The notes: generated by a model from the letters alone, not told the origin. 32,000 nt of DNA from Candidatus Iainarchaeum sp. (GCA_028713935.1 JAQTNI010000001.1:33894-65893), one strand, 5' to 3'; shown: positions 1,081-28,898, counted from the stretch's first letter. A program made the numbers and translations.

Positions 1081-1120
1081 CTTACACTTTCTTTTTCTTT
1101 CAAAGAAAAAGGAAGGGCAG
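1057..1120 (-). repeat. Trailer copy of a ~60-nt hairpin element, immediately 3' of tRNA-Gly
   Basis: Minus strand reads CTGCCC, then a polypyrimidine/polypurine hairpin, then AAAGTGTAAGTTGCCCAAA. It is paralogous to 1186-1245. T-runs in the hairpin also fit an archaeal oligo-T terminator. Confidence 0.7.
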
Positions 1121-2121: not shown

Positions 2122-2171
2122 GTTAAAAACAATTAGTCGAATCCTTTAAAATCGTTTCTAATTTTTGTTTT

Positions 2172-2252
2172 TTGTTAATTTTTTCCACAATCTTGTTAAT
2201 GGTTTTTTTAATTTGTTAATTAATTTGTTTTTTCAGGCTTTAATTTGTTAAT
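2172..2252. promoter_or_regulatory. Four spaced TTGTTAAT direct repeats in the promoter region of the wHTH gene
   Basis: TTGTTAAT occurs at 2172, 2193, 2213 and 2245, with a degenerate copy near 2224. Spacing of the first three is 21 and 20 bp. Confidence 0.35.
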
Positions 2253-2318
2253 TAGCATGTTGCATTTTCAAGAAAAAGTGTTATTATTCGCTTTGAAACT
2301 AACAAACAGGTTTGCATT

Positions 2319-2612
2319 TTATGCTGCAGTTGTGCCTTTTCCGACTTCTATTTTTTTCATTCTTTTTGGGATTACAAAATAGTGTTTTGCAGAGCAGACA
2401 CTGCATTCTGCAATGAAACAGGGTTTTTTGTTTTGTTTTTTTACTGTTGCAGTAAACTGGTGTTTTCCCTTGTAACCGCGTTTTTTTCTTTCATTGGACC
2501 TGTTTCCTTTTGCCATTGTCCTTGGCGAACCTGCCCTGAACAATTTGAGCTTATGGTCTGTATGGGTATTGCATTTTTTGCAATAATCCTTGATTACCTT
2601 TGGCATATTCAT
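2319..2612 (-). CDS. rpl44e: Ribosomal protein eL42 (L44e)
   Basis: MNMPKVIKDYCKKCNTHTDHKL ... ECSVCSAKH: a four-cysteine zinc ribbon with the size and N-terminus typical of archaeal L44e. Confidence 0.9.
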   Translation of the reverse strand: MNMPKVIKDYCKKCNTHTDHKLKLFRAGSPRTMAKGNRSNERKKRGYKGKHQFTATVKKQNKKPCFIAECSVCSAKHYFVIPKRMKKIEVGKGTTAA

Positions 2613-2751
2613 AAAGCATCACAAAAAATCGGATTTATTCTACAAATTACTAAAAATTATAGGCATGGAAAGCTTTTAAAAGCACTCTGAAAACACAAAA
2701 ACACACTATTTCCAAGTAACTCTTTAATTCTGATTTGTCTTTTATTATGCC

Positions 2752-3210
2752 ATGGTTCGGAATGTTAAAAAATGGGTAAATTATGTTGATAAGTCCCTTG
2801 CAAGGCAGCCTAAGCGTGCACTGAGAAGGCAGAGGCAAATAGAAAGGCAAGTTTTTGCCCAAGAAATTTCTCCAAAGGACTTGAAAAAGGCGCGTGCAGA
2901 GTTATCTGCTTCTGTTGCAGAGCAAAGAGTCCTGAGAAAGGATCACAAGCTTTTTAACAAAATAGTTATTGACACAGCAATAAAAGAGCTTGGTTTTAAT
3001 CAGACTTTGTCTTCTTCTGCATTAAGAAACCTGCATTTGCTTTCAAACAGGGCCTTGATGATTCCCCTGGGTTCAACAATAGAAATCCGACCTGAAGTTT
3101 TTGGCCAAACATTAACTCAAATAATCAGGTTAATTGGCGACAAACCCCTTGCAATAAAATTTTTGTCTACTCTGATTCACTTGCGCGAAGCTTACAATAA
3201 AAATCTTTAA
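2752..3210 (+). CDS. Hypothetical protein with a basic N-terminus
   Basis: 152-codon ORF in an otherwise unoccupied interval. No motif recognised. Confidence 0.45.
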   Translation: MVRNVKKWVNYVDKSLARQPKRALRRQRQIERQVFAQEISPKDLKKARAELSASVAEQRVLRKDHKLFNKIVIDTAIKELGFNQTLSSSALRNLHLLSNRALMIPLGSTIEIRPEVFGQTLTQIIRLIGDKPLAIKFLSTLIHLREAYNKNL

Positions 3211-3241
3211 TGCAAAAGCAATTGAGAAAACCATTTGCAAT

Positions 3242-3658
3242 TCAGTTTTGCCCTATTCCACAAAGTTTTTTCCATTGCTCTTCCACTGTCCTTTCGTTCA
3301 CATATGGCTTGTGGTGCCTGAATCCGCCTCCAAATCCTGCTGGGATGTGCAGTAATTCGTGAATCAGGGTTTTTGTTTTGTCATCCTCGCTTAGCCTGTC
3401 AAATTTTTCCGAAAGCAGTTCAATCACATAAAAAGGCTCTGTTTTCATTCCAAGCTGCATTGCTTTTCCTAACCCATGTATGCGTGCAATTGTCCTTCTT
3501 GTTTTTGTCCCTGCACTTTTAAGACAGGCAATTCTTTCAGGCGCAATATGGTGAAAACCGAGCTTTTCAACAAGTTCCCTTGCCTTCAAAGTCCATTCTT
3601 CTGAAAAAGCGTATTTCACAAAAAAAACCTTATAACATTTCAGAAATTTTTTTTCCAA
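3242..3658 (-). CDS. Putative HExxH zinc metallopeptidase (COG4900-like)
   Basis: HELLHIPAGFGGGFRHH motif in a small ~138-aa protein. The start overlaps the end of the DJ-1 gene by 29 nt. Confidence 0.55.
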   Translation of the reverse strand: MEKKFLKCYKVFFVKYAFSEEWTLKARELVEKLGFHHIAPERIACLKSAGTKTRRTIARIHGLGKAMQLGMKTEPFYVIELLSEKFDRLSEDDKTKTLIHELLHIPAGFGGGFRHHKPYVNERTVEEQWKKLCGIGQN

Positions 3659-4130
3659 ATTCCCTTGCTGCCTGCGGGCCTTTTCCTGTAATTATTTTGC
3701 CATCGGTTTCAACAAGCGCTTCAGTTAATTTTGCGCCTTTTGCCTCAATTTTCTCTGCAAGCCCTGTGCAGGTCGCTTTTTTTCCTTTCAAGAGGCCTGC
3801 ATTTGCAAGAATCATTGGTGCAATGCAGATTGCTGCAACAATTTTTCCTTCTTTTGAAAATTCTTTTGCCAATTTCAATGCAGCCGCATCTTTGAAATAA
3901 GTTTCTGAGCCTGAGCCTCCGACAAAAATAATTGCATCAAAATCGCCTGTTTTCACCTGCTTTAATTCCAATGAAATTTCCGCTTTTCCCCCAAGCATTC
4001 CAATTGCAGTGCCTTTTTGCTTTCCTGCAATAACTGTTTCATGCCCTGCCTTTTCCAGCTCTTCTTTTGTAAAAAACAATTCTTCATCACGGAAATTTTT
4101 TTGTGCAATTACCAAAACAATCTTTGCCAT
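3630..4130 (-). CDS. DJ-1/PfpI family protein
   Basis: Starts MAKIVLVIAQ and has the nucleophile-elbow AAICIAP motif. The start is trimmed to the ATG at 4130; the 48-codon upstream extension in the track is unlikely to be translated. Confidence 0.85.
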   Translation of the reverse strand: MAKIVLVIAQKNFRDEELFFTKEELEKAGHETVIAGKQKGTAIGMLGGKAEISLELKQVKTGDFDAIIFVGGSGSETYFKDAAALKLAKEFSKEGKIVAAICIAPMILANAGLLKGKKATCTGLAEKIEAKGAKLTEALVETDGKIITGKGPQAAREFGKKISEML

Positions 4131-4196
4131 AAGCAGTGCCTTTATCCAATTATTTGCAGGGAAAGGTTTTTTATTCTGAAAGGGCATAATGTTTGC

Positions 4197-4544
4197 ATGA
4201 AAACAGGGCTTTTGCTGATTTGCTTTGTTGTTTTTGCTGTTTTGTTCAGCGGCTGCACACAGCAGCCCGCACAAGCCCCTCTAGGCGGAAACAATTCCAA
4301 TACAATTGAAATTTCAAATTTTTCTTTTTCTCCAAGCGAAATTACAATTAAAAAAGGAGAAACTGTTGCCTGGATAAACAAGGATTCAGCAAAGCACAGC
4401 ATTGTTTCAGACTCAGGAAGCGAATTGAATTCAACGCTTTTGGCAACCAACGAAACTTTTTCACACACATTTAATTCTTCGGGAACATTCGGTTATCATT
4501 GCACTGTGCACGCTTCAATGAAAGGAAAAGTAATCGTAGAGTGA
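4197..4544 (+). CDS. Small blue-copper (cupredoxin/plastocyanin-like) lipoprotein
   Basis: Signal peptide with lipobox LFSGC. Type-1 copper ligands are H (AKHSI) and YHCTVHASM (C-x2-H-x2-M). Start trimmed to the ATG at 4197. Confidence 0.8.
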   Translation: MKTGLLLICFVVFAVLFSGCTQQPAQAPLGGNNSNTIEISNFSFSPSEITIKKGETVAWINKDSAKHSIVSDSGSELNSTLLATNETFSHTFNSSGTFGYHCTVHASMKGKVIVE

Positions 4545-4548
4545 TTGC

Positions 4549-4767
4549 TTGCTCGAAAACATTGTTTATTTCATGATTCTTGGAAAGCCGCTCATATTCT
4601 ATTTGGGGATTATTACCCTGGTTTCTTTTTTGTGCACTGCAACAATCGGCTTTTTGAATTTTAAAGGCTATAAAAAAATTCCTTTCAAATGGCATCCGCG
4701 CTTTGCTGCAATTTCAATAATTCTGGGAATAATCCACGGCACACTCGGAATACTGCTTTACCTTTGA
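4549..4767 (+). CDS. Small two-TM membrane protein (hypothetical)
   Basis: 72-codon ORF directly after the cupredoxin gene with two hydrophobic helices. TTG start, so the true start may be the internal ATG. Confidence 0.45.
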   Translation: MLENIVYFMILGKPLIFYLGIITLVSFLCTATIGFLNFKGYKKIPFKWHPRFAAISIILGIIHGTLGILLYL

Positions 4768-4805
4768 AAACAAAGCTTTTTATTTTGCTTTTTTCTAATT
4801 AGAAC

Positions 4806-5627
4806 ATGCAGCCAAAAATCTTCTGGATTGCCTCTCTCGCGCTTCTTTTGATAATGCTCATTGTGAATGCCTTTTTTGTCCTCGACCTGCTCACTTCCGA
4901 CCTTCCAGTTGAATTGTTCATAGTGAATTTCATACTTTTTTTCCCATTGGCTGCCTCACTTGGCTTTGTTTGGGCCAAAAAAAATTTTGGCTATTATTTA
5001 AGCCTTGTTCTTGGGGCGATTTTTTTAGTGCTTTATGCGGGTGAATTTATTTTTACGCTCCTGGCTTTGCAGGAAGCGCTTTCCCTGATGGATTTTTTTT
5101 CCTTTATTTTCCCGCTTATAATTCCGCCTGCCCTGCTCCTGCTCTGCACATGGAAAAGCAGGCCTGTTTTTCAGGAAACAAATCCGGGAACACATTGGAA
5201 TGCAGCGCTGATTACACTAGTCCTGGTTTTTTTGTTTTACCTTGCTTCGGCAATAACACTTGCCTTTTATTATTCCGCAATGGTTGCAGCCGAATATTTC
5301 ACTGAAAACCTTGTTTATATTTTCAATTCCCTCTTAATCCAGGGAGCAATCTTTATTGTTGCGCTTATTGCAACTGCATTTTTCTTTTTTAAAAAAAGAG
5401 CGGGTTTTTACCTGGGGCTTGCTGTTCCAATCCTGCTTGCAATTGTTTCCCTTGCAGACCTGAGCATGCAATTAATTTCTGTTTGGCAAATTGCAACTCC
5501 AGATGAAATGTTGTCATTGTCACTTGCAATTTTAGGTTCCATCCAGCCAGGCCTTTTAATAATCCTTTTTTACTGTATCTGGAAAGCAAAGCCTGTTTTT
5601 GAGGAAAAAAAACATGCACAACCTTGA
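4806..5627 (+). CDS. Polytopic membrane protein (hypothetical)
   Basis: 273-codon ORF with about 8 hydrophobic segments. No family motif recognised. Confidence 0.6.
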   Translation: MQPKIFWIASLALLLIMLIVNAFFVLDLLTSDLPVELFIVNFILFFPLAASLGFVWAKKNFGYYLSLVLGAIFLVLYAGEFIFTLLALQEALSLMDFFSFIFPLIIPPALLLLCTWKSRPVFQETNPGTHWNAALITLVLVFLFYLASAITLAFYYSAMVAAEYFTENLVYIFNSLLIQGAIFIVALIATAFFFFKKRAGFYLGLAVPILLAIVSLADLSMQLISVWQIATPDEMLSLSLAILGSIQPGLLIILFYCIWKAKPVFEEKKHAQP

Positions 5628-13678: not shown

Positions 13679-13872
13679 GCAGAGGTGGCAGAACTTGGTA
13701 AATGCGCCGGCCTTGAGAAGCCTTTCTTTCTAAAGAAAGAAAGCCTTGGGAAAGAAACAGTTTGGCTCTGCCAAACTGTAGTTCGCTTCGCTTACATTAG
13801 AAAAAAAGATTATTATTTTTCAGGCGAGCCGGTGTCCGAAAGGGCGCGTGGGTTCAAATCCCATCCTCTGCG
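13679..13872 (+). tRNA. tRNA-Ser(UGA), class II, with a ~109-nt intron at 37/38 (about 13718-13826)
   Basis: Acceptor GCAGAGG/CCTCTGC, 3-bp D stem GCA/TGC, anticodon stem CCGGC/GCCGG, loop CTTGAGA, long variable arm TGTCCGAAAGGGCGC, T arm GTGGG-TTCAAAT-CCCAT, discriminator G. A BHB-like fold is possible: CTTG pairs with CAGG between bulges AG|A and CG|A. Confidence 0.85.
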
Positions 13873-18165: not shown

Positions 18166-18192
18166 TTTGCACAACTTATTATTTCAAGCAAT

Positions 18193-18438
18193 GCGGGGGT
18201 GGCAGAGCGGTCTAATGCGCACGCCTGGAAAGGCCTTTTCTTGCAAGCAAGAAAAGCCCTGGGAAAAGAACAATTTGCTTTGCAAATTGGTTGATTCCCC
18301 GGTTCTCCCCAAAGGATAATTTCAGTTAGAAATTTTTTTCTTTGGGGTGGACTGCAGACCTTTCTTTTTATTAAAAAGAAAGGGATATAGAGAGCGTGTT
18401 CTCGAAAGGGAGCGCGAGTTCAAATCTCGTCCCCCGCG
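18193..18438 (+). tRNA. tRNA-Ser(GGA), class II, with a 162-nt intron at 37/38 (18231-18392)
   Basis: Acceptor GCGGGGG/CCCCCGC, D stem GCA/TGC, anticodon stem CACGC/GCGTG, loop CTGGAA(A), variable arm TTCTCGAAAGGGAGC, T arm GCGAG-TTCAAAT-CTCGT, discriminator G. The BHB is relaxed, with 3 of 4 central pairs. Confidence 0.85.
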
Positions 18439-18439
18439 T
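18418..18439 (+). repeat. att-like core copy 1 (tRNA-Ser(GGA) positions 53-73 plus 1 nt)
   Basis: GTTCAAATCTCGTCCCCCGCGT, identical to 19775-19796 and 21294-21315. Confidence 0.9.
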
Positions 18440-18528
18440 TAAACGAAAAGTTCAAATCCAATTGAACGGAAAATTCAAAAAAGAAGCTTTTTTATTTTGC
18501 TTGGAGCATAATTGTTATTGGTGGTATA

Positions 18529-18750
18529 ATGGATCAAACTTTTAAGGTTGTGATTGAGAACGGCATGGACGGTTATTTAATTGCAGAAGTTCCAGAATTG
18601 CCAGGTTGCTATTCTCAAGGAAAAACCATGGAAGAGCTTTTAGGCAATATTAAAGAGGCAATTGAACTCTATTTGGAATCGCTGCAAGAACTGGATAAAA
18701 AACCAGAAAAACGGTTTGTTGAAATAAAAGAAGTTGTCGTAAATGCCTAA
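18529..18750 (+). CDS. hicB: HicB-family antitoxin (UPF0150)
   Basis: YLIAEVPELPGCYSQGKTMEELLGNIKEAIELYLE is the typical HicB N-terminal domain. It overlaps hicA by 8 nt. Confidence 0.85.
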   Translation: MDQTFKVVIENGMDGYLIAEVPELPGCYSQGKTMEELLGNIKEAIELYLESLQELDKKPEKRFVEIKEVVVNA

Positions 18751-18970
18751 GCTCAAGCTGCTTGCGCCAAAAGAACTAATAAAAATCATTGAAAAACTCG
18801 GCTTCAAGTTTTTACGGCAAAAAGGAAGCCACGCAACCTTTGTCCATCCAGACGGAAGAATGACAGTAATACCAATACACAGCAACTCAAAAATAGATAG
18901 AGGATTGCTCTTGAAAATAATAAAAAAAGAACTGCAAATGGAAAGGCAAGAATTCGAAATATTATTGTAA
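18743..18970 (+). CDS. hicA: HicA-family mRNA interferase toxin
   Basis: LIKIIEKLGFKFLRQKGSHATFVHPDGRMTVIPIH is the YcfA/HicA signature with the GSH motif. Confidence 0.9.
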   Translation: MPKLKLLAPKELIKIIEKLGFKFLRQKGSHATFVHPDGRMTVIPIHSNSKIDRGLLLKIIKKELQMERQEFEILL

Positions 18971-18978
18971 AAAAGGGC

Positions 18979-19280
18979 TGTGTTATAAATTGTCCGAAAT
19001 GCAAGAAGAAAATGGTTGAGGAAAAAGGCGAAACTCCCGAAGGCGCTACATACCATTATCACAAGTGTCCTAACTGCTGCGAGGAAATAGTTGACATGAA
19101 ACAGTTGCACGCTGTTGCACAGCAATACAGGGAAATGAAAAAATACACTGCAAAAATCAGCAAATGGGGAGAAGCCTCGGCATAAGAATTCCAAAAGAAC
19201 TCGCAGAACAACACTCCCTGAAACAAAACGGCGAAGTAACCTTGGTTCCGGAAAAAAAAGCAATAAAAATAGTTGCATAA
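18979..19280 (+). pseudogene. Zn-ribbon + AbrB/SpoVT(MazE-like) antitoxin gene, frameshifted and lacking a normal start
   Basis: Frame 1 gives CPKCKKKM...YHYHKCPNCC...TAKISKWGEASA* with the stop at 19183. The frame offset by +2 continues (G)RSLGIRIPKELAEQHSLKQNGEVTLVPEKKAIKIVA* to 19280. Joined, ISKWG-x-SLGIRIPKEL is the canonical AbrB first strand, and the shift lies in the G-run at 19166-19169. No ATG/GTG/TTG precedes the first CxxC. Confidence 0.65.
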
Positions 19281-19345
19281 AACGAAGCCAGAAAGTGCTT
19301 GGGCTGATTCAAAAGATAAATATAAAAATACGGGAAGTGCAATAT

Positions 19346-19738
19346 ATGGCCATGGCACGAACACTCAAACAAAGAAAAAACCGAAGAAAAACAGGTGGCG
19401 TACTTGCTGTCAGCCCCAATCCACGTGAGGTATATCGTGAAGCTGATGGTTGGAGTGTTTTTCCAGATGTTCGGTACTATGTGCCTGGTAAGCGCATGAC
19501 TAATTTTCAAGTGGCTCTCCGATTTTCCAATAAAAAAGGTTCCGATCGTTGGCGCTATAACCAATTTTTGAAACAACATGGTTTTATGGTAACAATGGGC
19601 GGTGATATTGTAAAGTCGCTTCCCGGCAAGAAATTTAGAATGCTAACAAAAACAGAGAAAGACAAAGTGTTACGCTTGTTAAAGTCGGGCTGGGCAGTAT
19701 CTTATGGCCCAAGGCCAAAAAATACACGACAAAAATAA
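19346..19738 (+). CDS. Small highly basic protein of unknown function, islet-A copy (paralog of 20880-21257)
   Basis: 130 aa. Shares blocks with the islet-B copy: NRRKTGGVL, VFPDVRY, RFSNKxGSDRWxYNQFLK, GDIVKxLPGxKFRxL, SGWAxxYGPxPKxTxxK. Ends 36 nt before core copy 2. Start trimmed to the ATG at 19346. Confidence 0.75.
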   Translation: MAMARTLKQRKNRRKTGGVLAVSPNPREVYREADGWSVFPDVRYYVPGKRMTNFQVALRFSNKKGSDRWRYNQFLKQHGFMVTMGGDIVKSLPGKKFRMLTKTEKDKVLRLLKSGWAVSYGPRPKNTRQK

Positions 19739-19774
19739 CCTGATGCTTGTCACGCGCATCATTAACGGCATAGT

Positions 19775-19796
19775 GTTCAAATCTCGTCCCCCGCGT
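19775..19796 (+). repeat. att-like core copy 2
   Basis: Perfect 22-nt copy of the tRNA-Ser(GGA) 3' end. The upstream T-stem strand is absent, so this is not a tRNA. Confidence 0.9.
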
Positions 19797-19849
19797 GTTT
19801 TTATTTCATAAACAATATGTTTTTAAATTGAAAACAGAATGTTTTTATT

Positions 19850-20392
19850 ATGCTTGCGAGTGAATTGTTTTCTTCAAAGGAGAGAATTGGGCTTATCAAG
19901 ATTCTTTTTTATACGCCCAATTTGGAATTAAAAGTTAGGTCTCTTGCTCGGTTTGCAAAAGTAAGCCCTGCTCTTGTTTCCGGCACGATTGCGATTCTTA
20001 AGAAACAAGGAGCTATAAACAAAGGCAAAATTGATTTGTTGCATCCTTCTGCAAGGGCCTTGAAAATACTATTGAATATTGAAAGCCTCACCTCTGCCAA
20101 ATTTGTTCCTGAAATAAGAAGCATTTTCAAGGATTGCAATGGCATTGGTTTGTATGGTAGTTGGGCAAACGGAACCAATTCAAAAGACAGTGATTTGGAT
20201 TTTTGGGTAAAATCAGAATCTGAAAGCGAGGAAAAGTCGGCTAAAATAAGTCGTTTTGTTAAGCAGAAGCTTGGCTTGGAAGCCAGCATAATTATTCTTA
20301 CACAAAAAAGGCTGAAAGAATTGAAAGAAAAGGATTTTGTTTTTTATTCAATGCTGTACAATTGTTTTTTGTTGTGGGGCGAAGGAATATGA
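19850..20392 (+). CDS. wHTH + minimal nucleotidyltransferase (MNT) antitoxin
   Basis: GLYGSWANGTNSKDSDLDFWV is the GS...DxD nucleotidyltransferase motif, and the N-terminal ~60 aa are wHTH-like. Confidence 0.8.
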   Translation: MLASELFSSKERIGLIKILFYTPNLELKVRSLARFAKVSPALVSGTIAILKKQGAINKGKIDLLHPSARALKILLNIESLTSAKFVPEIRSIFKDCNGIGLYGSWANGTNSKDSDLDFWVKSESESEEKSAKISRFVKQKLGLEASIIILTQKRLKELKEKDFVFYSMLYNCFLLWGEGI

Positions 20393-20805
20393 TTGATTTT
20401 AATGAGTGCCTTGCAAAAGGCCTTTTGGCAAGAATTCCCGCTTCAAGGGAAAAAGCTTTGCAGAGTATTGAGAAAGCAAAAGAACTATTGGAAGAAGCAA
20501 AAGCAAGCCTTGAAGAGGAAAGAATCAATTCCACAGTAATAGTTGCCTATCTTGCAATTTTTCATGCTGCAAGGGCACTGCTTTTCAAAGATGGTTACAG
20601 GGAAAAAAGCCACGAATGCGTAATCCGCTATCTGGAAGAAAAATATCCTGAAATAAAACCAGGGCAGATTGAAGCCTTGGAAAAATACAAAAGTGAAAGA
20701 ACCCACACACAATACGATGTGAGTTATAATCCAAGCGAAGAACAAGCAGAAAAAATGATAAAATTCACGGAAAAATTCATCCAAACAATAGAAGAAATGA
20801 TTTAA
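20389..20805 (+). CDS. HEPN-domain protein (toxin partner of MNT)
   Basis: All-helical 138 aa with AARALLFKDGYREKSHECVIRYL, as in PF05168-type HEPN. It has an ATGA start/stop overlap with the MNT gene. Start trimmed to the ATG at 20389. Confidence 0.75.
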   Translation: MIDFNECLAKGLLARIPASREKALQSIEKAKELLEEAKASLEEERINSTVIVAYLAIFHAARALLFKDGYREKSHECVIRYLEEKYPEIKPGQIEALEKYKSERTHTQYDVSYNPSEEQAEKMIKFTEKFIQTIEEMI

Positions 20806-20879
20806 GCTGGTTCGCTTCTATGCCTTGTTTTTTGGAAAATTATAAATATGGGCATGTGCTTAATACTATTGGTAGTTTA

Positions 20880-21257
20880 ATGCGCGGTGTAAACAAAAAT
20901 AGGAGAAAAACTGGTGGCGTACTCCGTGTTGGGAAACGACCACTTGAAGTTGGGATTTCGTTGGAAGATAGCGGTTTTCATGTTTTTCCCGATGTTCGAT
21001 ACCGCAGTGACCGAATGAGTAGATTTAAAACTTCTCGCAGGTTTTCTAACAAAATAGGTTCAGATCGCTGGCACTATAACCAGTTTTTAAAACCTCGCGG
21101 CTTTTGGATTACCCAAGCGGGCGATATTGTAAAACCCCTTCCGGGCAATAAATTTAGGTTTTTAAAGCTATCCGAATTTCGGAAAGTTAGGGATTTGTTA
21201 TGGTCGGGTTGGGCAAAGAGATACGGCCCAAAACCAAAAACAACTAAGCGAAAATAG
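20880..21257 (+). CDS. Small highly basic protein of unknown function, islet-B copy (paralog of 19346-19738)
   Basis: 125 aa, with roughly half its positions identical to the islet-A copy by hand alignment. Ends 36 nt before core copy 3. Confidence 0.75.
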   Translation: MRGVNKNRRKTGGVLRVGKRPLEVGISLEDSGFHVFPDVRYRSDRMSRFKTSRRFSNKIGSDRWHYNQFLKPRGFWITQAGDIVKPLPGNKFRFLKLSEFRKVRDLLWSGWAKRYGPKPKTTKRK

Positions 21258-21293
21258 CATCATTCTTGCCACGCGCATCTTTAACAGTAAGGT

Positions 21294-21315
21294 GTTCAAA
21301 TCTCGTCCCCCGCGT
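21294..21315 (+). repeat. att-like core copy 3
   Basis: Perfect 22-nt copy of the tRNA-Ser(GGA) 3' end. Confidence 0.9.
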
Positions 21316-21437
21316 AATTTCAATTAATAGTCCAGAGTGTTGGCATATTAGTTGTAAGATAAAATCTTGGTTTGCTCATATTTGCCCTGTGTGCTTTTGC
21401 GAGAGCAAAATATTGGATTAGAGGCCGCAGAGGCTGT

Positions 21438-22115
21438 TTATTGGTGATGTTTTTGCGTTCTTGCTTTTCTAATTCTTTTTGGAGCCCACCTGTAACTTAC
21501 AGATTTTCTGTTGTGATGATTTTTTTTGCTTAATAACTTTAAGAACAGGGTTCCAATTCTTCGGGCATTTTCCTGCGGATTTGAAGAACAATCAACAATA
21601 TACAACGGTTTCTTATGTTGTATTGCAAGAGCCTTTGCTTCAAGTGCGCAGGCATAACATTCACGTTCGATATCTTTGATACTTACAGAATGCCGTGTTT
21701 TTTATCTTCTGCGCATTTCCAGCCTGTTTTGCCTTCTTTCTTGGATTACCAGCGGGTTTCCTTTTATTAAAACAATTCCGTCAAAATACTTTGCGCATTC
21801 AGGAATCAACTGTGTAAAAATACTGGCATCATGCCTGATCCTGTTGATAACAAAGTGCCCATCAACTACAATAAGTTTTTCGGGATATTTTCTGGCTAGG
21901 TCCCTGATTTCAAGTGCAGCTTCTTCAATAAACTTCTGCATCTCGCGATTCGTTTGTTCTCCAAATTTTTTTCCGGAAAAACTTTTTCTAAACTTTTTTT
22001 TTAAAAATTCTGCGCCACGAATATAATAGAACAGCGGCCCTAGTTTTTCACTTGCAAGCTTAATTGCAGTTGTTTTTCCCAGAGTATGTGGCCCCCCGAC
22101 ATAAATTAAAACCAT
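21438..22115 (-). pseudogene. Archaeal adenylate-kinase (AdkA)-like P-loop kinase interrupted by an in-frame TAA (21702-21704)
   Basis: Walker A GGPHTLGKT, then VVDGHFVI (compare IDTHAVI in AdkA), then ...ERRQNRLEMRRR*KTRHSVSIKDIERECYACALEAKALAIQHKKPLYIVDCSSNPQENARRIG. The 87 codons after the stop are in the same frame with no further stop and continue the AdkA-like C-terminal pattern. Confidence 0.65.
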
Positions 22116-22214
22116 ACTTAACTTACCCCTCTTTTGTATATATTTTTTTGGTTATAAGAAAAAAATGAATAAGCTTTTTATTTCCAAGTGCCCATTATTT
22201 ACAAGGTAATTTGT

Positions 22215-22907
22215 ATGGCAAAAAGCAAAAAAGAATTTTCTGGAAAAAAGGATTGCGGAATTGTTGTTTCAAAGGATGGGCCTTATCTTGTTTCTGGCGG
22301 CTTGCCTCTGGTAAGGGAAATTGCTGTGCCTGACAGTGAAGGCCATCCTGTAAAATGGGTGAAAGGCAAGGTTTTTCCTGCCAAGGGAGATTATGCTCTT
22401 TGCCGTTGTGGACAGACTGAAAAAAAGCCGTTTTGTGATGGAACACACACTAAAATAGGCTTTGATGGCACTGAAACAGCAAGCAGGAAAGAATTCCTGA
22501 AACAAGCGGAAAAAATCAGTGGGTCAGGCCTTGTTTTGTTTGATGCGCCAGAACTGTGCGCAGGAGCAGGGTTTTGCCATAGCAAGGAAGGGGATACATG
22601 GAACCTTACAAAAGAGTCTGATAATTTCAAATCAAAAAAAATTGCAATCCAGCAGGCATGCGATTGCCCTGCGGGAAGGCTGGTGGCTTGTGAAAAAAAA
22701 ACAGGCAAGCCAATTGAACCTGATTTTAAGCCAGGAATCAGCATTACAAAATGGCAAGGCGAAAAATTTCCCGGTCCCTTTTGGATAAAAGGCGGAGTGC
22801 CAATAGAATCGCATGATGGAAAAAAATATGAAACAAGGAATCGCGTTACTTTGTGCCATTGCGGCAAATCAAGAAACAAGCCGTTTTGTGATGGCAGCCA
22901 TATGTAA
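22215..22907 (+). CDS. CDGSH iron-sulfur domain protein (two CDGSH motifs)
   Basis: CRCGQTEKKPFCDGTH and CHCGKSRNKPFCDGSH, plus a central Cys-rich segment. Start trimmed to the ATG at 22215. Confidence 0.85.
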   Translation: MAKSKKEFSGKKDCGIVVSKDGPYLVSGGLPLVREIAVPDSEGHPVKWVKGKVFPAKGDYALCRCGQTEKKPFCDGTHTKIGFDGTETASRKEFLKQAEKISGSGLVLFDAPELCAGAGFCHSKEGDTWNLTKESDNFKSKKIAIQQACDCPAGRLVACEKKTGKPIEPDFKPGISITKWQGEKFPGPFWIKGGVPIESHDGKKYETRNRVTLCHCGKSRNKPFCDGSHM

Positions 22908-22971
22908 GCAAATATTTTTCCAAGTTTTTTTGTTGGAAAGGTTATAAACTACTTTGTTAAATGCTTTTTTT

Positions 22972-23457
22972 ATGCAGGAAGAATTCAGGCTTGTTTCAAA
23001 TACGGAATTGGCAGGCCCTTTAAGGCATTTTGTTGAAGCTATTTTTGCCAAACATATTTCTAATCCGGGTTCTTTGAAGGTTTTTATTTCAAACGGCGGC
23101 CAAATGAAAGGGATTGCAAGGGGCAATGTTTTGATTGGATTTTGCGCCTTTATGCCGCTTGGCAATGATTCTGTTTTAATAAGCCAAATCTGGACAAATA
23201 CGAAGTCAGTGGCTGCAAGAGAATTCAAAAGAGATTTTGGCAGGACTCCAACAGAATATCTTTTTGGAGATTTTTTGAGGAAAGGAATTTCCCATTTTCA
23301 TCATCTAGGGGTAACAGCTTTAGGTGCAAGATTTTTGGCAAGGCTTGAGAAAAACGCCCTGGTTGCTAAAAAACAAAGCGGGTTTGAAATAACAAATAGG
23401 GCAATTGAAAAAGCAAAAAAAACAAGGCAATTAAGGCCTCTCAGGGTTATTCATTGA
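22972..23457 (+). CDS. Hypothetical protein
   Basis: 161-codon ORF from the first ATG. No motif recognised. Confidence 0.45.
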   Translation: MQEEFRLVSNTELAGPLRHFVEAIFAKHISNPGSLKVFISNGGQMKGIARGNVLIGFCAFMPLGNDSVLISQIWTNTKSVAAREFKRDFGRTPTEYLFGDFLRKGISHFHHLGVTALGARFLARLEKNALVAKKQSGFEITNRAIEKAKKTRQLRPLRVIH

Positions 23458-23462
23458 ATTTT

Positions 23463-23690
23463 TTATTCGTCCTGTTTTTGCTTGGGTTTGACTGGTGTTT
23501 TTACCTGGCCTCTGGCCTGGTTGCTTTCTGAAAGGTCCTGGATTCTTCTAGCCAAAGCGGAATATTTTTTTTGTTTCAGCATTAATTGCATTTCCAACAG
23601 CCTTAATTGCCAGTAGTCCTGGGGTTTTGCGCAGTCCAGTTCGTCCAGCACTTCGGATAACTTTCGTTTCACCATAAAAATTGCCTCCAA
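23463..23690 (-). CDS. Hypothetical small helical protein
   Basis: 75-codon ORF with a charged C-terminal tail. Coding status is uncertain. Confidence 0.35.
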   Translation of the reverse strand: MEAIFMVKRKLSEVLDELDCAKPQDYWQLRLLEMQLMLKQKKYSALARRIQDLSESNQARGQVKTPVKPKQKQDE

Positions 23691-23944
23691 AAAAATCAGT
23701 CAAATTTTTGAATAAAAAGCCAATAAAAAATCAATTCCAAATTGTTATATAATCAGTGTATGGTTAGTATTAAAATGCAATAATAAGGCAGCAATAAACG
23801 CTTTTTTTGGCTCAGTTCCCTTTATAACCTGTTTTTGGCACTTATTATGTATATCAGATTCTGTTTCTCTAATCTGTTAGTGCTTTGGCACCATAGTAAA
23901 TTTTTTGAGAATTAAAAAATTCAATTGATTGTGGAGGGATAAAA

Positions 23945-24439
23945 ATGACTTTAGAACCTATTTGGACAAAAGACCTGGATATTGTTTTTGTTGGAATAAA
24001 CCCGAGGTCAGAATCAGTGGAAAATGGAATGTATTTTCACGAGAACAATTCTTTTTGGTCGCAATTAAACGAATCTGAAATTACTTCGGAAATTACTGAT
24101 TCAAAAAACATGCTGAAATACAATATTGGAATTGATAACCTGGTTCACAGGCCTACGAAAAGCAGCAAAGAGCTTTCAAAAAAAGAATATTATGATGGCA
24201 GGAAAGAACTGGAACAAAAAATTCTGGAGCAAAAGCCAAAGACTGTCTGCTTTTTGGGAAAAAAGGCATTCAGGAAATATTTTAAGGAAAAGCCTGAAAA
24301 CCATGGCTGGCAAAAAGAAAAAATTTTGGAATCAAAAGTTTTCATAGCGTATGTTCCGAAAAAAAACAAGTATGATTCAAAAATGAACATTACTGAAAAA
24401 GACAAGATAAACAAGTTAAAAGAATTAAAATCACAATAA
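23945..24439 (+). CDS. mug: Mug/TDG-type (family 2) uracil/mismatch DNA glycosylase
   Basis: DIVFVGINPRSESVENGMYFHENNSFWSQL and GIDNLVHRPTKSSKELSKKEYYDGRKELEQKILEQKPKTVCFLGKKAF align block by block with E. coli Mug (VVFCGINPG...NRFW; LVDRPT...ILGKQAY). GGAGGG lies 7 nt before the ATG. Confidence 0.85.
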   Translation: MTLEPIWTKDLDIVFVGINPRSESVENGMYFHENNSFWSQLNESEITSEITDSKNMLKYNIGIDNLVHRPTKSSKELSKKEYYDGRKELEQKILEQKPKTVCFLGKKAFRKYFKEKPENHGWQKEKILESKVFIAYVPKKNKYDSKMNITEKDKINKLKELKSQ

Positions 24440-24567
24440 GCAATTCACTGCAAATGCTTTGTGCAGGGCAGGCAAGCTTTGCACAAACAATGAATTGCAG
24501 AGCAATTAATTCAAATAAGCTTTTTATTCCTAAGCGCACTGATTAGTTAAATAGGGGCTGTTTTTCA

Positions 24568-25722
24568 ATGGGCAAAACTTTTGGCATCAGCATAGGGCTT
24601 GGCATTGTAAAGCCAAATTTTGAAAAGCCGTTTGAAGAGAATTTTGAGAAGGCTTTTTCTGCTTTCAAGGAATACAAAAAGGCAAAAATTTCTGAAAGGA
24701 AAGCGTTTTTTGGAGTGCTTTCAAGGAAGGACTGGGAAAGCCTTGTAGGAATAAAGCTGATTGAAAATTCTTCCATAGAAGGAAAAAAATTTCTTGAAGG
24801 GGAATACAAAAAAATTCTTTTTTTTGATGAAGAAAGGCTTTTTCTTGAAACAGTTGAACTGAACAGGGAAATGGAAAACAATCTTTTTCTTCTGAAGAAA
24901 AAAAGAAGTTTTGCAAAAAGCATTGCAAAGGGAATTTTCAGGGTAAAAAATGCTTTTTCTGGCTTTGAAAGGCTTTTCAAGAAAAAAATTCTTTTGGAAA
25001 TGGGTTTTTTCAGGCTGCTGCCTTTTTGTTATTCCCTGATTGAAGAACTGCCTGAATCAAAAAAACAATTTGTGAAATACAATGAAAGCGATGCAATTGA
25101 GTTTGTTTCAAAGCCGGGCCAGAGCCTTAATAAAATTGAAAAAGAATTATTGCGGAACATTCTGCTTGCAGAAAAAATTCTTGCAAAAAAAGGCCTGAAA
25201 CTTTTTTTTGGCAGTGTTTATCCAAAAACAAAAAGAATGGGCTTGCTGAAAAAGATTGGAATTGGCGAGGACCAGAATTTTTTGGAATTGCATTTGCACA
25301 TGGGAAATTTTGATTCCGCTGCTGAAATGGCAGAACTGTACAACAAAATAATTGGCTTTTTTGAAGCAAATCCCCTGTTAATTGAAGAGGAGCGCAGGCT
25401 TTTTTATGGCCTTAAAAACCCAAGAAGGTTAAGCCTGAAAGGCATTGAAGAGCAAATTCGGGCAAGGTTTGGAAAAAACAGCAGGCTTGAAAAACCAGGC
25501 AGGCCTGATATTGATGCAATTATTTCGGCTTTGAACAATAGAAAACAGAAATTTTTGGCGAGAGATTATGCGACTGTTTTTATCAGGCCTGAGCTTGGCA
25601 CAATTGAAATCAGGGCTTTTGGAACAAAAGGAAACGGAACAAAAAGCATAAGGAAAAACCTTCATGAAAACATTGTTTTTTTTGAACAGTTCATGAAAAA
25701 ACTTGAATTGGCTTCAGCGTGA
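24568..25722 (+). CDS. Hypothetical protein whose C-terminal half resembles GCS2-type carboxylate-amine ligases
   Basis: 384 aa. AIEFVSKPGQSL, LELHLHMG and FIRPELGTIEIRAFG resemble the E-x-E, H-x-H-x-G and E-x-R motifs of glutamate-cysteine ligase family 2 (YbdK-like). The N-terminal ~150 aa are unassigned. Confidence 0.4.
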   Translation: MGKTFGISIGLGIVKPNFEKPFEENFEKAFSAFKEYKKAKISERKAFFGVLSRKDWESLVGIKLIENSSIEGKKFLEGEYKKILFFDEERLFLETVELNREMENNLFLLKKKRSFAKSIAKGIFRVKNAFSGFERLFKKKILLEMGFFRLLPFCYSLIEELPESKKQFVKYNESDAIEFVSKPGQSLNKIEKELLRNILLAEKILAKKGLKLFFGSVYPKTKRMGLLKKIGIGEDQNFLELHLHMGNFDSAAEMAELYNKIIGFFEANPLLIEEERRLFYGLKNPRRLSLKGIEEQIRARFGKNSRLEKPGRPDIDAIISALNNRKQKFLARDYATVFIRPELGTIEIRAFGTKGNGTKSIRKNLHENIVFFEQFMKKLELASA

Positions 25723-26607
25723 CTTTGGAATTTTGTGGCCTCCAAATTTGTTTCTTATGGCTGCTATAAACTTGTTTGAAAAAGTGTTTTCCTGCCTTGA
25801 CCTTAGGCGGGATTCAAAAGCTGCTGTTATTGAAGAAAACGGGATTTCTTTTTTCCAGGCTTCTTCAATTGCCCATTTGCCTGTTTCCCCGCCTTCAACA
25901 ATTCCCGGAAGATTATCAAAATTTTCTTCTTTAAGCGCTTTTTCCGCGAGTTCAAGGATATATGACCTGATTATGGCCCCGTTGTTCCAGGTGCCGGCAA
26001 TTTCACAAAGATTAAAGCCAAATTCAGATTTTGACAATAATTCAAATCCCTCTGCATAGCTTTGAAGAATTCCGTATTCAATTGCATTGTGCGCCATTTT
26101 TATAAAATGCCCTGAACCATTTCCGCCTGCAAACAATAATCCGTTTTTGCTTGCCAAAGCCTCAAAAACAGGCTTGAACTTTTCAAAGGCCTTTTTTTCC
26201 CCGCCAACAGTGAAACAAAGCCCGTTTTCAGCGCCCCGCAGGCCCCCGCTTGTTCCTGCATCAAGAAAAAAAATGCCTTTTTCTCCAAGGCTTTTGGCTC
26301 TTCTGATGGAATCAAGGTAATGGGAATTGCCTGCATCTGCAATAATGTCGCCTTTTTTCAAATAGGGAAGAATTTCCAAAATTGCTTTTTCCACTGCTTC
26401 CCCCGCTGGAACCAAAAGGACAATTTTTCTTTCCGGCTTTAAATACTCCACAAACTCCTTAATGCTTGAAGCGATATTAATTTTTTTTCCAAGCTCTTTT
26501 CTTAAATCCGGATTTTTATCAAACCCAATGGCATCAATTTTTTTTGAAGCCAGATTTGCCAATGCCCTCTGGCCAATTTTTCCCAGGCCAATGATTCCAA
26601 CCTGCAT
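25714..26607 (-). CDS. gnd: 6-phosphogluconate dehydrogenase, short (YqeC/Gnd-like) form
   Basis: N-terminal Rossmann motif VGIIGLGKIG, then GNSHY, GTSGG, GSGHFIKMAHNAIEYG and GGETGKWA, which are 6PGDH signatures. Confidence 0.9.
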   Translation of the reverse strand: MQVGIIGLGKIGQRALANLASKKIDAIGFDKNPDLRKELGKKINIASSIKEFVEYLKPERKIVLLVPAGEAVEKAILEILPYLKKGDIIADAGNSHYLDSIRRAKSLGEKGIFFLDAGTSGGLRGAENGLCFTVGGEKKAFEKFKPVFEALASKNGLLFAGGNGSGHFIKMAHNAIEYGILQSYAEGFELLSKSEFGFNLCEIAGTWNNGAIIRSYILELAEKALKEENFDNLPGIVEGGETGKWAIEEAWKKEIPFSSITAAFESRLRSRQENTFSNKFIAAIRNKFGGHKIPKSR

Positions 26608-26610
26608 GAA

Positions 26611-27513
26611 TTATTGCCTCCCTAGTTTTTCGTCAGCAAAAACAAAAGCCCCAAGCAGCCCAATTTTGCTGCCAAGCTTTGACGGAACAATTTTTGGCAC
26701 CTTGCCGATTGTATACTTTTTTATTTCGCGTGGCTTTGGAATAATTTTGTCAAACTGGTTCAAAGCAATTGAGCCCATCAAAACAATTGCATCAACAGAA
26801 AAAGCATTAAGCATATTGCCAATGCCCTGCGCATTGTAATCCCTTATTTGCCAAACAATTTTTTTTATTTTTTTGTCTGACTCGCTCAGCCTGAAAAAGT
26901 CTTCAACTGTTATCCTTGTTTTTAATTCTTTTTCAATTATGGATTCTATTCCAAAACCAGAGGACATTGCGGCCCAGCAGCCAAGCCTGTTGCAGCTGCA
27001 TTTTTTGGCCTTTTTCAAATCCCGCTCCAAGGTTGTGTGGCCGAATTCGCCAAAAAAACAGTCCATTGCCTTGCCGTTCATGACAAGCCCGGAACCAATT
27101 CCAGTGCTAATTGCCAGAAGAAAAAATTTTTTCACTGTTTTTCCCAGGCCAAAATTCAGTTCGGCTTTTGCGGCAGCTTTCAGGTCGTTTGCAATAAAAA
27201 CAGGCTCTTTAAAGTGCCTGCCTAATTCTCTGGCAACATTGAATTTGGAATTAATTTTCATTGGTGCAGATTCCAGCAAAAACCCGTTTTCAACAGGGCC
27301 TGGCAAGCCAAGTGAAACTCCCGCAATTTTGAATTCAGAAGAAACGCTTTCCCTAAGCGCCTTTGACAAATCCCTGATTTGCATTATTAGCGCTTTTGGG
27401 CTTCCCTTGATAGTTTTACACTCAATTGCCCTGGTTATTTTTCCGTTTTTTTGCATTAACGCGCCAAGAATTTTTGTTCCGCCAACATCATAGCATTCTA
27501 TCAGGCCAGGCAT
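26611..27513 (-). CDS. ROK-family glucokinase
   Basis: DVGGTKI at the N-terminus, GEFGH, and the zinc motif CSCNRLGCW. Start trimmed to MPGLIECYDVGG at 27513. Confidence 0.85.
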   Translation of the reverse strand: MPGLIECYDVGGTKILGALMQKNGKITRAIECKTIKGSPKALIMQIRDLSKALRESVSSEFKIAGVSLGLPGPVENGFLLESAPMKINSKFNVARELGRHFKEPVFIANDLKAAAKAELNFGLGKTVKKFFLLAISTGIGSGLVMNGKAMDCFFGEFGHTTLERDLKKAKKCSCNRLGCWAAMSSGFGIESIIEKELKTRITVEDFFRLSESDKKIKKIVWQIRDYNAQGIGNMLNAFSVDAIVLMGSIALNQFDKIIPKPREIKKYTIGKVPKIVPSKLGSKIGLLGAFVFADEKLGRQ

Positions 27514-27570
27514 AATTATGTATTGTTTGCAATAACAAATAAATAACTGTCTGTGCATAAATGCAGGTTA

Positions 27571-28266
27571 ATGAAAATAATTGCAGATAAAAATATGGAA
27601 AAATTGAATAAGCTTGCAGCCAAGATTTTGGCGAGAAGCATAAAACAGATATTGAAAAAAAAGGAGTATCTTATTCTGGGCCTTGCAGGCGGCAGGAGCC
27701 TTTTTGGCTTTTTAAAAGTTCTAAGCCGGGAAACAGAAATCCCCTGGAAAAAAATCCATTTCTTTCTGGCTGACGAAAGAATAGTGCCTGTTTCAAGCAA
27801 AGAAAGCAATTTCAGGATGATCAAGGGCGCCCTGTTTGACAGGCTTGCCAGTAAAAAATTATTGCCAAAAAAGAATATCCACAAATTTGCCATGAATAAA
27901 AAACCATGTTTTGGGCTTTTTGATTATGAAAAAGAGCTGAAAAAATACGGGAATTTTTATGATATCCTGGTTTTAAGTTCCGGAGAAGACGGGCACATAG
28001 CCTCTTTGTTTCCAAAACATGATTCAATAAAAAACAATTCAGAATGTTATCTGATAGTAAAAAATTCGCCCAAACCGCCTGAAAAAAGAATGAGTGTTTC
28101 GAGAAAAATGATTTTAAGGTCAAAAATTGTTTTGTTGTTTTTTATTGGCGAAGCCAAAAAAACCGCCTATAAAAAATTTTTAGAAAAAGGCAATGGCTTT
28201 TTTGTGTGCCCTGCGAAACTAACCAAAAGAATCAAGGAACTGTATGTCCTAACAAGCCACAAATAG
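27571..28266 (+). CDS. pgl: 6-phosphogluconolactonase
   Basis: LGLAGGRS, FFLADERIVP and LSSGEDGHIASLFP motifs. Start trimmed to the ATG at 27571. Confidence 0.85.
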   Translation: MKIIADKNMEKLNKLAAKILARSIKQILKKKEYLILGLAGGRSLFGFLKVLSRETEIPWKKIHFFLADERIVPVSSKESNFRMIKGALFDRLASKKLLPKKNIHKFAMNKKPCFGLFDYEKELKKYGNFYDILVLSSGEDGHIASLFPKHDSIKNNSECYLIVKNSPKPPEKRMSVSRKMILRSKIVLLFFIGEAKKTAYKKFLEKGNGFFVCPAKLTKRIKELYVLTSHK

Positions 28267-28269
28267 GGG

Positions 28270-28857
28270 TTATTCAAAAAATTCTTTTTTAAGAATGATT
28301 TTGTTTGTAAGGCCATAATTGTGCTTTTCGAGTACGCCTTTTGATTCAAGCCTTTTGATTGTCCTGTGGACCTGGACCTTGCTTAACCCTGTTTCCTTGA
28401 CAAGCTTTGATTGAGTGGATTCAAAATTTGCTTTTTTAAGCGTGTCAATAATTTTTTTTTCGTCAGGCAGCAATAGGCTGTTTGTTGTTTCCTGTTTTAT
28501 TGCCTTGATTTCTTTTTCGCGGACAAGGCTCCAGATTACAATTCCCGCCAAAATTGAAACAACTGCGCCTGCAATCAGGAAAAGCGAGGTTGGGGATAGC
28601 AGTGCCTGCACAGGATCGGGCGTAAAAAACCTGGCCCTGTCGAATCTGTTTGAATCAATGTTTAAGTCCCTGGCTTCTGCAGGCAGGCTCTGTGAAATTC
28701 TCTCTCCCAAAGGAAAACCAACAAGCTCTATTCTCCAAAAAACAGTGTAAGCCTGAAGTATAAAGGAAATAAGCGAAAAACCGCCGAAAAGAAAGCACAA
28801 AAACATTATTGCAAAATACTTTTTCTTTGCCCTGAAAATAGTTTCATTTTGTTTCAT
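28270..28857 (-). CDS. Membrane-anchored winged-helix transcriptional regulator
   Basis: Two TM helices followed by SKLVKETGLSKVQVHRTIKRLESKGVLEK (MarR/ArsR-like wHTH). It is divergent from the ABC operon. Confidence 0.7.
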   Translation of the reverse strand: MKQNETIFRAKKKYFAIMFLCFLFGGFSLISFILQAYTVFWRIELVGFPLGERISQSLPAEARDLNIDSNRFDRARFFTPDPVQALLSPTSLFLIAGAVVSILAGIVIWSLVREKEIKAIKQETTNSLLLPDEKKIIDTLKKANFESTQSKLVKETGLSKVQVHRTIKRLESKGVLEKHNYGLTNKIILKKEFFE

Positions 28858-28898
28858 GTTTCATCACGTTTCAATGCCCCATAATAACTGTTTCATTA

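Follow-up and report, generated by a model that had tools for sequence, protein, structure and literature searches.

Two short units lie in tandem downstream of the tRNA-Ser(GGA) gene in a 32,000-nucleotide stretch of Candidatus Iainarchaeum sp. DNA (GCA_028713935.1, JAQTNI010000001.1:33894-65893; the whole stretch is called the window hereafter), each bounded by copies of the 3' end of that tRNA (Table 1). With moderate confidence, we consider it probable that they are a tandem pair of diverged, non-autonomous integrative mini-elements that entered at the T-loop/3' end of tRNA-Ser(GGA) and were mobilised in trans. Unit 1 (18440-19774) and unit 2 (19797-21293) each hold toxin-antitoxin (TA) cargo, a gene for a small basic protein (SBP1 and SBP2, respectively) and a 36-bp non-coding element next to the distal tRNA-end copy, referred to here as the P arm. 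Neither unit encodes a recognisable recombinase. None of the ~45 open reading frames (ORFs) of the window matched a recombinase or transposase family in Pfam, and those with no Pfam match, SBP1 and SBP2 included, found none in PHROGs or NCBIfam either. An earlier inspection of the DNA by itself (the sequence-only reading) had likewise seen no recombinase in the window, and no canonical integrase turned up next to the units within the 32 kb.

A window scan with the 22-mer GTTCAAATCTCGTCCCCCGCGT returned three perfect copies (cores 1, 2 and 3), all on the plus strand, with core-to-core spacings of 1357 bp and then 1519 bp. There was no fourth copy in the window at up to 3 mismatches, and 100 dinucleotide shuffles gave no chance copies. 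When introns were allowed, ARAGORN predicted a complete cloverleaf for tRNA-Ser(GGA) with an anticodon-loop intron of 162 nt (18231-18392). Core 1 comprises the T-loop, the 3' side of the T-stem, the 3' strand of the acceptor stem, the discriminator base and one flanking T, and the tRNA identity of cores 2 and 3 starts at G53 in the T-stem, so that the core corresponds to positions 53-73 plus one nucleotide. The base preceding the core is A in tRNA-Ser(GGA) but T in the other two copies; because this base differs and no T-stem is present there, cores 2 and 3 are not tRNA halves. A split-tRNA or trans-splicing arrangement was rejected on similar grounds, the tRNA being complete and cores 2 and 3 having no T-stem partner. 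These data bear out the sequence-only reading, which had described three perfect 22-bp copies with homology from T-stem position 53, not representing tRNA halves, and units of 1357 and 1519 bp. End repeats identical to the 3' part of a tRNA, together with an intact proximal tRNA, are a hallmark of Campbell-type integration. Both the T-stem-loop and the 3' end are recognised integration sublocations of tyrosine integrases, and archaeal integrases favour the 3' end (PMC8371274).

In order to assess the repeat junctions independently, Logan assemblies of 3 SRA runs were compared base by base with the window. Contig L003 matched 18818-20452 exactly and runs across core 2, and contigs L001/L002 matched 20623-28870 exactly, across core 3 and the right flank. 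Since independent contigs cross both, these two of the three junctions are not the assembly artefact that the sequence-only reading had named as a possible explanation. Among the Logan contigs, those from two runs begin at 20623, another ends at 20452 and a further edge lies at 18818. The breaks at 20452 and 20623 fall within the HEPN gene, away from the 22-bp cores, and low coverage or the presence of related HEPN variants in the community may account for them.

The cargo genes are of the type II HicAB and HEPN-MNT kinds, adjacent small genes matching toxin and antitoxin families. Pfam thus agreed with the HicB-HicA, winged helix-turn-helix (wHTH)-MNT and HEPN assignments made from the sequence-only reading (E-values in Table 1). 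A decayed Zn-ribbon/AbrB gene had also been proposed for unit 1; when the frames were joined at ~19170, its translation matched the MazE/AbrB family PF04014 (4.7e-10). The cargo begins 90 bp (hicB) and 53 bp (MNT) after the proximal core. At the other end of each unit the P arms, which run from the SBP stop codon to the core, have 26 of their 36 positions in common, and an invariant CACGCGCATC occurs in both of them and nowhere else in the window. Folding of arm and core into a structured RNA or DNA was considered and rejected, since the consensus reached only -3 kcal/mol with a marginal 5-bp stem.

SBP1 and SBP2 (PHD95_00350 and PHD95_00365 in GenBank, on the 65.9-kb contig of a 'Candidatus ainarchaeum sp.' metagenome-assembled genome, MAG) are 59% identical, confirming the pair of paralogous small basic proteins that had been noticed before. 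Lys and Arg account for ~25% of residues in both, and a set of R, K, S, D, W and Y residues is invariant between them. Their genes share 64.5% nucleotide identity, with a synonymous divergence (dS) of 1.39 and a ratio of non-synonymous to synonymous divergence (dN/dS) of 0.25, and a TATA-like ATAAATAT box lies 30 nt upstream of the SBP1 ATG and 38 nt upstream of the ATG at 20880 in SBP2. GenBank starts SBP2 at 20820 (145 aa); judging by where the ATAAATAT box lies and by how the protein aligns with SBP1, the real start is probably the ATG at 20880, which would give a protein of 125 aa. Considering the dN/dS ratio and the ATAAATAT boxes, SBP1 and SBP2 are real, expressed-looking genes under purifying selection, and the dS and dN/dS values indicate that the two units diverged long ago under such selection. 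In both units the SBP gene reads towards the core and stops 36 bp before it.

We found no relatives of the SBPs among ~15 billion proteins. A word-indexed search of 5.8 billion clusters recovered the window pair only, and an exhaustive profile search of 1.84 billion representatives gave one spurious match to a multi-repeat NHL protein. Searches of phage and plasmid collections with tblastn were equally empty, as were those against Pfam, PHROGs, NCBIfam and PADLOC, and a profile search of the PDB returned NHL-like noise only. An AlphaFold2 (AF2) model of the full-length protein had a predicted local distance difference test (pLDDT) score of 53, which rose to 66.5 for a trimmed core; within it, a conserved module of helix-helix-beta hairpin-long helix is predicted at pLDDT 75-83. 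Foldseek matched this prediction to nothing in the PDB or BFVD at E < 0.8. The HUH motif is absent, SBP1 having one His and SBP2 two. An IS200/IS605-type or other transposon was also considered and fails, as no transposase family was matched and direct repeats of 22 bp form the boundaries.

When one genome per GTDB species was scanned with the 21-nt core, 15 loci emerged, every one in Iainarchaeota-like archaea; nearly all of the matches are to the 3' end of tRNA-Ser(GGA) or tRNA-Ser(GCU). Intron-bearing orthologues of tRNA-Ser(GGA) were present at four of these (L006, L009, L010 and L015). Locus L009 belongs to Ca. Iainarchaeum DeMMO3_25, a close relative at ~80% nucleotide identity (81% for guaA, 76% for a DUF7343-ABC gene pair and 73% for the tRNA). 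Its tRNA-Ser(GGA) core is followed by C and GTTTTTATTGCATAAACA, which agrees at 17 of 18 bases with the sequence GTTTTTATTTCATAAACA that follows core 2 in the window. This match is the sole one at up to 1 mismatch in 834 kb, and similarity of ~80% extends over 33 nt. Since L009 joins the tRNA core directly to the post-core-2 sequence, unit 1 is a clean insertion between cores 1 and 2 relative to this genome, and L009 is an empty site for unit 1. At L010 the order is guaA (56% at the amino acid level), tRNA-Ala, tRNA-Ser(GGA), an aldolase-like gene and a CDGSH gene (76%), with no second core at the locus; L010 is an empty site for the whole array. The sequence-only reading had taken the repeats for attL/attR scars of site-specific integration at a tRNA 3' end, and the two empty sites, through the presence/absence polymorphism that they reveal (no unit 1 in L009, no array in L010), support that proposal.

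Toxin-bearing, integrase-less islets of 1.34-1.53 kb also occur at tRNA-Ser genes of 3 other Iainarchaeota genomes. In the complete genome AR10, a 28-nt version of the core is repeated 1527 bp after tRNA-Ser(GCU), and the islet encodes a membrane protein as well as a Gp49/HigB-like toxin, the latter preceded by a small gene. An islet of 1534 bp with a single wHTH-Fic gene follows tRNA-Ser(GGA) in SMAG_U8022 (L006, of which L038 and L056 are the same). Its distal core has decayed (GTTCAAATtTCGTCCC--GCGTt) and is preceded by AAACGCACAATTAACAGAAAGGC, which is clearly related to the P arm of the window (common motif ACGC.CA..TTAACAG.AAGG); a weaker arm match, GCG.ATCTTT, precedes the distal core in AR10. 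The third case, L018, is another Iainarchaeum MAG, in which a Fic gene (3875-4807) lies directly downstream of tRNA-Ser(GCU) (5180-5265) and is flanked by a 65-bp direct repeat (3770-3834 and 5108-5174) derived from the tRNA trailer, not the tRNA end; the repeats contain an imperfect palindrome and are spaced by ~1339 bp. Islets are carried by ~4 of 11 informative genomes, with a different cargo in each. Further core-flanked units were among the things that the sequence-only reading had suggested looking for, and AR10 and SMAG_U8022 supply them. Counting the two in the window, core-flanked units measure 1357, 1519, 1527 and 1534 bp, and the cargo begins ~50-110 bp from the proximal core in every one. 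Such recurrence of size and cargo spacing in four islets is hard to obtain from independent decay.

Taken together, the direct repeats, the intact proximal tRNA, the empty sites and the arm beside the distal core are the classical signature of conservative site-specific integration. In the model that we favour, the attP of the circular element would be made up of the ~36-bp P arm, a 22-bp segment identical to tRNA positions 53-73 plus one nucleotide, and the left arm. Recombination would swap the tRNA 3' end for the copy carried by the element and push the old copy to the far side, leaving one core at each boundary, which is the arrangement observed. Unit 2 (MNT-HEPN-SBP2) would probably be the older resident, because its left arm is common to L009 at about the genome-wide divergence, and may be much older than unit 1 (HicBA, AbrB pseudogene, SBP1), which would have entered later at the tRNA-proximal core. 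We ascribe strand exchange to an integrase acting in trans because neither unit has a recognisable recombinase of its own; this enzyme would be of the tyrosine type and supplied by a larger element, a virus or the host. Going by what is known of the families concerned, the TA cargo could stabilise the units through addiction or could serve in defence. The cores themselves are perfect despite synonymous sites near saturation in the SBP genes, indicating that they are constrained or are reset by recombination with the tRNA; at the 64.5% identity of the adjacent genes, 22 identical bases would arise by chance with a probability of 0.645^22, or ~6e-5.

For the SBPs, the role that we hold most likely, judging by their context, is that of an accessory or architectural factor that binds DNA and acts at the P arm in the manner of a recombination directionality factor (RDF). 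They fit one RDF trait, in that a small basic protein is encoded beside the att site. Like RDFs of the Xis/Cox type and Orf2/Orf3 of SNJ2, which shape recombination, they are small, very basic, fast-evolving and att-adjacent (PMC8371274). RDFs differ in that they normally accompany an integrase gene, and no similarity of the SBPs to them was detected in sequence or fold. To date, no archaeal RDF has been demonstrated.

Several observations weigh against trans-mobilised mini-elements assisted by an SBP. The left ends of both units resemble the native tRNA trailers of relatives (the first 11 nt of the unit 1 left arm are similar to the L010 trailer), and the distal flank in AR10 is similar too. 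This likeness clashes with simple Campbell integration, by which native flanking sequence is expected nowhere but beyond the last core, and it makes the left boundary of unit 2 ambiguous over the first 33 nt common to the L009 trailer. Possibly unit 2 goes back a long way, with a stub of it left in L009; equally, the element attP could consist of a tRNA end plus trailer captured from earlier hosts, or the trailer (oligo-T and ATAAACA) could be functionally constrained. Moreover, no helper was found. The window contains no integrase or recombinase, and none was found among the ORFs of at least 100 aa that were checked downstream of tRNA-Ser in related loci, where not every ORF was scanned; those checked encode Fic, CAP, a methyltransferase, housekeeping proteins and a weak LAGLIDADG-like match. 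The 21-nt core is absent from IMG/VR, a 16-nt version found only unrelated phage tRNAs there, and the genome and metagenome scans revealed no integrase-bearing carrier of core or arm. Of 48 matches to the P-arm pattern in JGI metagenomes, 2 are real, both from the L006 organism. Logan yielded no circle-junction contig, the integrated arrangement being the only one seen. As for the accessory factor, profile search of the PDB and Foldseek detected no similarity of the SBPs to any RDF or DNA-binding fold. An SBP is missing from the islets of AR10 and L006, so that the protein is not needed for the integrated state, and all characterised archaeal integrases act without an RDF (PMC8371274).

The lack of a helper in IMG/VR, among the window ORFs and among the checked ORFs of related loci would also be expected if the units were stranded remnants, that is, if a larger integrase-encoding plasmid or provirus at tRNA-Ser had lost its integrase and most of its genes, leaving immobile islets kept by their TA genes. 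We consider this possible but doubtful. A review attributes integrase-less integrated archaeal elements 'presumably' to loss of the integrase once integration had taken place, and tandem integration is also on record (PMC8371274); the frameshifted gene in unit 1, the decayed distal core of the L006 islet and the possibility that unit 2 predates the L009 split all fit with decay. Nevertheless, four independent core-flanked islets have converged on 1.36-1.53 kb with their cargo 53-110 bp from the proximal core and the distal arm intact. The smallest integrase-bearing archaeal cryptic element on record measures 2.6 kb (PMC6563490), so that decay would have had to remove more than 40% of even such a minimal element each time while sparing both att sites. 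Remnants would also have to account for window cores that stayed perfect while the SBP synonymous sites approached saturation, and for an SBP gene that is intact in both units, under purifying selection and equipped with a conserved promoter box. A mere local tandem duplication of the tRNA-distal segment, followed by divergence and gene replacement and with the cores as passive passengers, would explain why the same right-hand module (SBP, arm and core) recurs in the same orientation in both units. We regard it as highly improbable: perfect cores next to genes that are only 64.5% identical (SBP dS 1.39) make passive duplication very unlikely, the cargo of the two units is unrelated, unit 1 is missing from L009 with boundaries exactly at the cores, and analogous islets with other cargo are found at tRNA-Ser genes of other genomes.

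The position and conservation of the SBP genes raise the question of whether the units might move by themselves. The SBP would then recognise the P arm and the T-arm, either as a site-specific recombinase of a new and very small kind or as the DNA-targeting subunit of such an enzyme. The gene occupies the attP-adjacent place usual for integrases and reads towards the core, it is the sole backbone gene common to both units, it evolves under purifying selection and keeps invariant R, K, S, D, W and Y residues, and with neither a homologue nor a fold match no known function excludes such a role. At 125-130 aa, however, the protein is too small for the catalytic unit of a tyrosine or serine recombinase, all of those known to us being larger, and it has no match in Pfam, PHROGs or NCBIfam; the L006 islet, with its related P arm, and the AR10 islet, with the same core, do without it, and the predicted fold looks more like a small DNA-binding module than an enzyme, which is a weak argument. 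Autonomous units of this kind therefore appear very unlikely to us. Somewhat less remote, while still unlikely, is a hitherto undescribed cassette-like system in Iainarchaeota in which toxin/defence packets of 1.3-1.5 kb would be captured serially at tRNA-Ser through the conserved arm and tRNA-end site, the mover being a recombinase not recognisable as an integrase (either a host enzyme or the SBP, which would then be a minimal recombinase or the first directionality factor of an archaeon).

Mobilisation in trans has precedents. Cis-mobilizable elements (CIMEs) of bacteria are flanked by att sites, have no recombination module of their own, can stand in tandem with a shared middle att and are thought to be moved by the integrase of a related element. 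The window units display the same features, namely perfect cores, an arm conserved across genomes and no own recombination module, and they are arranged in tandem as in the accretions of the streptococcal ICESt1/ICESt3 family. CIMEs are bacterial, usually several kb long and derived from integrative and conjugative elements with a known helper, whereas the window units are archaeal, measure 1.36-1.52 kb, have no known helper and possess an orphan gene for a basic protein next to the att site. By this analogy, the pair would be an archaeal counterpart of bacterial CIMEs with tandem accretion. As hitch-hiking mini-elements, the units would belong to a general kind already known, not to a new category. 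The sequence-only reading, according to which the units match no known element type, was overstated in this respect, given CIMEs in bacteria and the integrase-less and tandem elements in archaea (PMC8371274).

Among archaeal elements, tRNA-integrated plasmids, proviruses and cryptic elements of the pNOB8, pT26-2 and SNJ2 types have the same tRNA 3'-end repeats and a restored tRNA. They range from 2.6 kb to tens of kb and normally contain an integrase, integrase-less ones being treated as decay products; tandem and integrase-less integrated elements are both on record (PMC8371274, PMC6563490). The size of ~1.4-1.5 kb, the conserved arm and the conserved non-integrase gene of the present units suggest a dedicated non-autonomous family. 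'Suicidal' elements of the SSV type cannot excise alone and depend on an intact integrase provided in trans (PMC7253208; PMC8371274). In these, attP lies within the int ORF and int(N) and int(C) flank the element; in the window, by contrast, the SBP gene ends 36 bp short of the core, no ORF crosses a core and there is no likeness to an integrase. Membership of the SSV type was rejected, as no int(N)/int(C) fragments were found at the cores. Integron cassette arrays and the pdif modules of Acinetobacter also consist of ~1-kb units, often with TA genes and a terminal recombination site, that rely on a recombinase encoded elsewhere. The sites in the window differ from theirs in being perfect 22-bp direct repeats of a tRNA end, not attC palindromes or XerC/D sites. 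An integron cassette array was rejected too, there being no IntI beside the array and no imperfect attC palindrome (RYYYAAC...GTTRRRY).

Table 1. Coordinates of the units, their cores and arms, and the tRNA genes of the window
Feature	Position	Strand	Description
tRNA-Ser(GGA)	18192..18439	+	attB-bearing gene; 3' end regenerated by core 1
Core 1, attL core	18418..18439	+	exact repeat search
Unit 1 left arm	18440..18528	+	second GTTCAAATC, inverted TTGAAC, T-run, hicB promoter region
hicB antitoxin	18529..18750	+	Pfam PF15919, 7e-11
hicA toxin	18743..18970	+	Pfam PF07927, 2e-18
Zn-ribbon-AbrB/MazE antitoxin pseudogene	18985..19279	+	frameshift near 19170-19178 (three-frame translation)
SBP1	19346..19738	+	130 aa, isoelectric point (pI) 11.2
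Unit 1 P arm	19739..19774	+	end of conserved non-coding element, CACGCGCATCATTAACGGCATAGT
Core 2, attR of unit 1 and attL of unit 2	19775..19796	+	junction in Logan contig L003
Unit 2 left arm	19797..19849	+	first 33 nt orthologous to L009 tRNA-Ser(GGA) trailer
wHTH-nucleotidyltransferase (MNT-type antitoxin)	19850..20392	+	Pfam PF01909, 2.5e-8; weak MarR/Crp HTH; PADLOC PDC-M05A
HEPN toxin	20389..20805	+	Pfam PF05168, 2e-19; PADLOC PDC-M05B
SBP2	20880..21257	+	125 aa from ATG at 20880, pI 11.6
Unit 2 P arm	21258..21293	+	CACGCGCATCTTTAACAGTAAGGT
Core 3, distal attR	21294..21315	+	junction in Logan contigs L001/L002; chromosomal flank after
Arm-plus-core pattern			CACGCGCATC-N(14)-GTTCAAATCTCGTCCCCCGCG
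tRNA-Gly(CCC)	1120-1281	-	90-nt anticodon-loop intron
tRNA-Glu(UUC)	13550/13679-13873	+	236-nt intron by ARAGORN; Rfam places tRNA at 13679-13872

The target tRNA was missed by default ARAGORN, which reported 0 tRNAs in the window, and by Rfam at gathering score, which reported only 2, both elsewhere. All 3 tRNA genes of the window have unusually long anticodon-loop introns and escape default ARAGORN; the tRNA introns of related Iainarchaeota loci are 72-228 nt. The 3' ends of tRNA-Gly and tRNA-Glu are not duplicated in the window. A motif, AAGCCYTGGGAAA, preceded by a short hairpin, occurs in the tRNA-Ser intron (18254) and three times in the tRNA-Glu region (13586, 13639 and 13741), and blastn also linked the tRNA-Ser intron to the L010 tRNA-Ala intron and to one L009 site. 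These may represent a family of tRNA-intron sequences, shared or mobile.

The region downstream of tRNA-Ser(GGA) is a rearrangement hotspot. Between core 3 and the DUF7343-ABC pair, the window has a segment of ~7 kb (21316-28270) encoding an AAA_17 kinase, CDGSH, uracil-DNA glycosylase, two orphan ORFs, 6-phosphogluconate dehydrogenase, ROK and 6-phosphogluconolactonase. L009 has a methyltransferase gene only between tRNA-Ser and DUF7343-ABC, and proximity of tRNA-Ser to CDGSH is common to the window and L010. In the MAG ERP125453_co1_38, two contigs break exactly at the 3' end of tRNA-Ser(GCU), one ending (L005) and one starting (L007) there with an overlap of ~55 nt, perhaps because strains vary at the same att site and the assembly graph branches there. 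Elsewhere in the window (1267-4274), near tRNA-Gly(CCC), a putative phage metallopeptidase gene (3242-3658; PF18894, 3e-18) is accompanied by several ORFs without a family match.

The genomes of DPANN archaea are tiny, and hardly any of their mobile elements are known. Islets of ~1.4-1.5 kb would, to our knowledge, be the smallest att-bounded integrative units known in archaea. The host described here, as a member of the Iainarchaeota, belongs to DPANN, a group with 0 mentions in the text of a review of archaeal integrases (PMC8371274). The intron-containing target tRNA escapes standard tRNA finders, so that islets like these would go unnoticed by automated island finders. The orphan, conserved SBP is a candidate archaeal recombination accessory factor, and the 36-bp arm together with the 22-bp core offers a concrete substrate for finding the enzyme. 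What the pattern of islets implies is a recombination system that acts in trans and carries toxin and defence genes from one of these symbionts to another.

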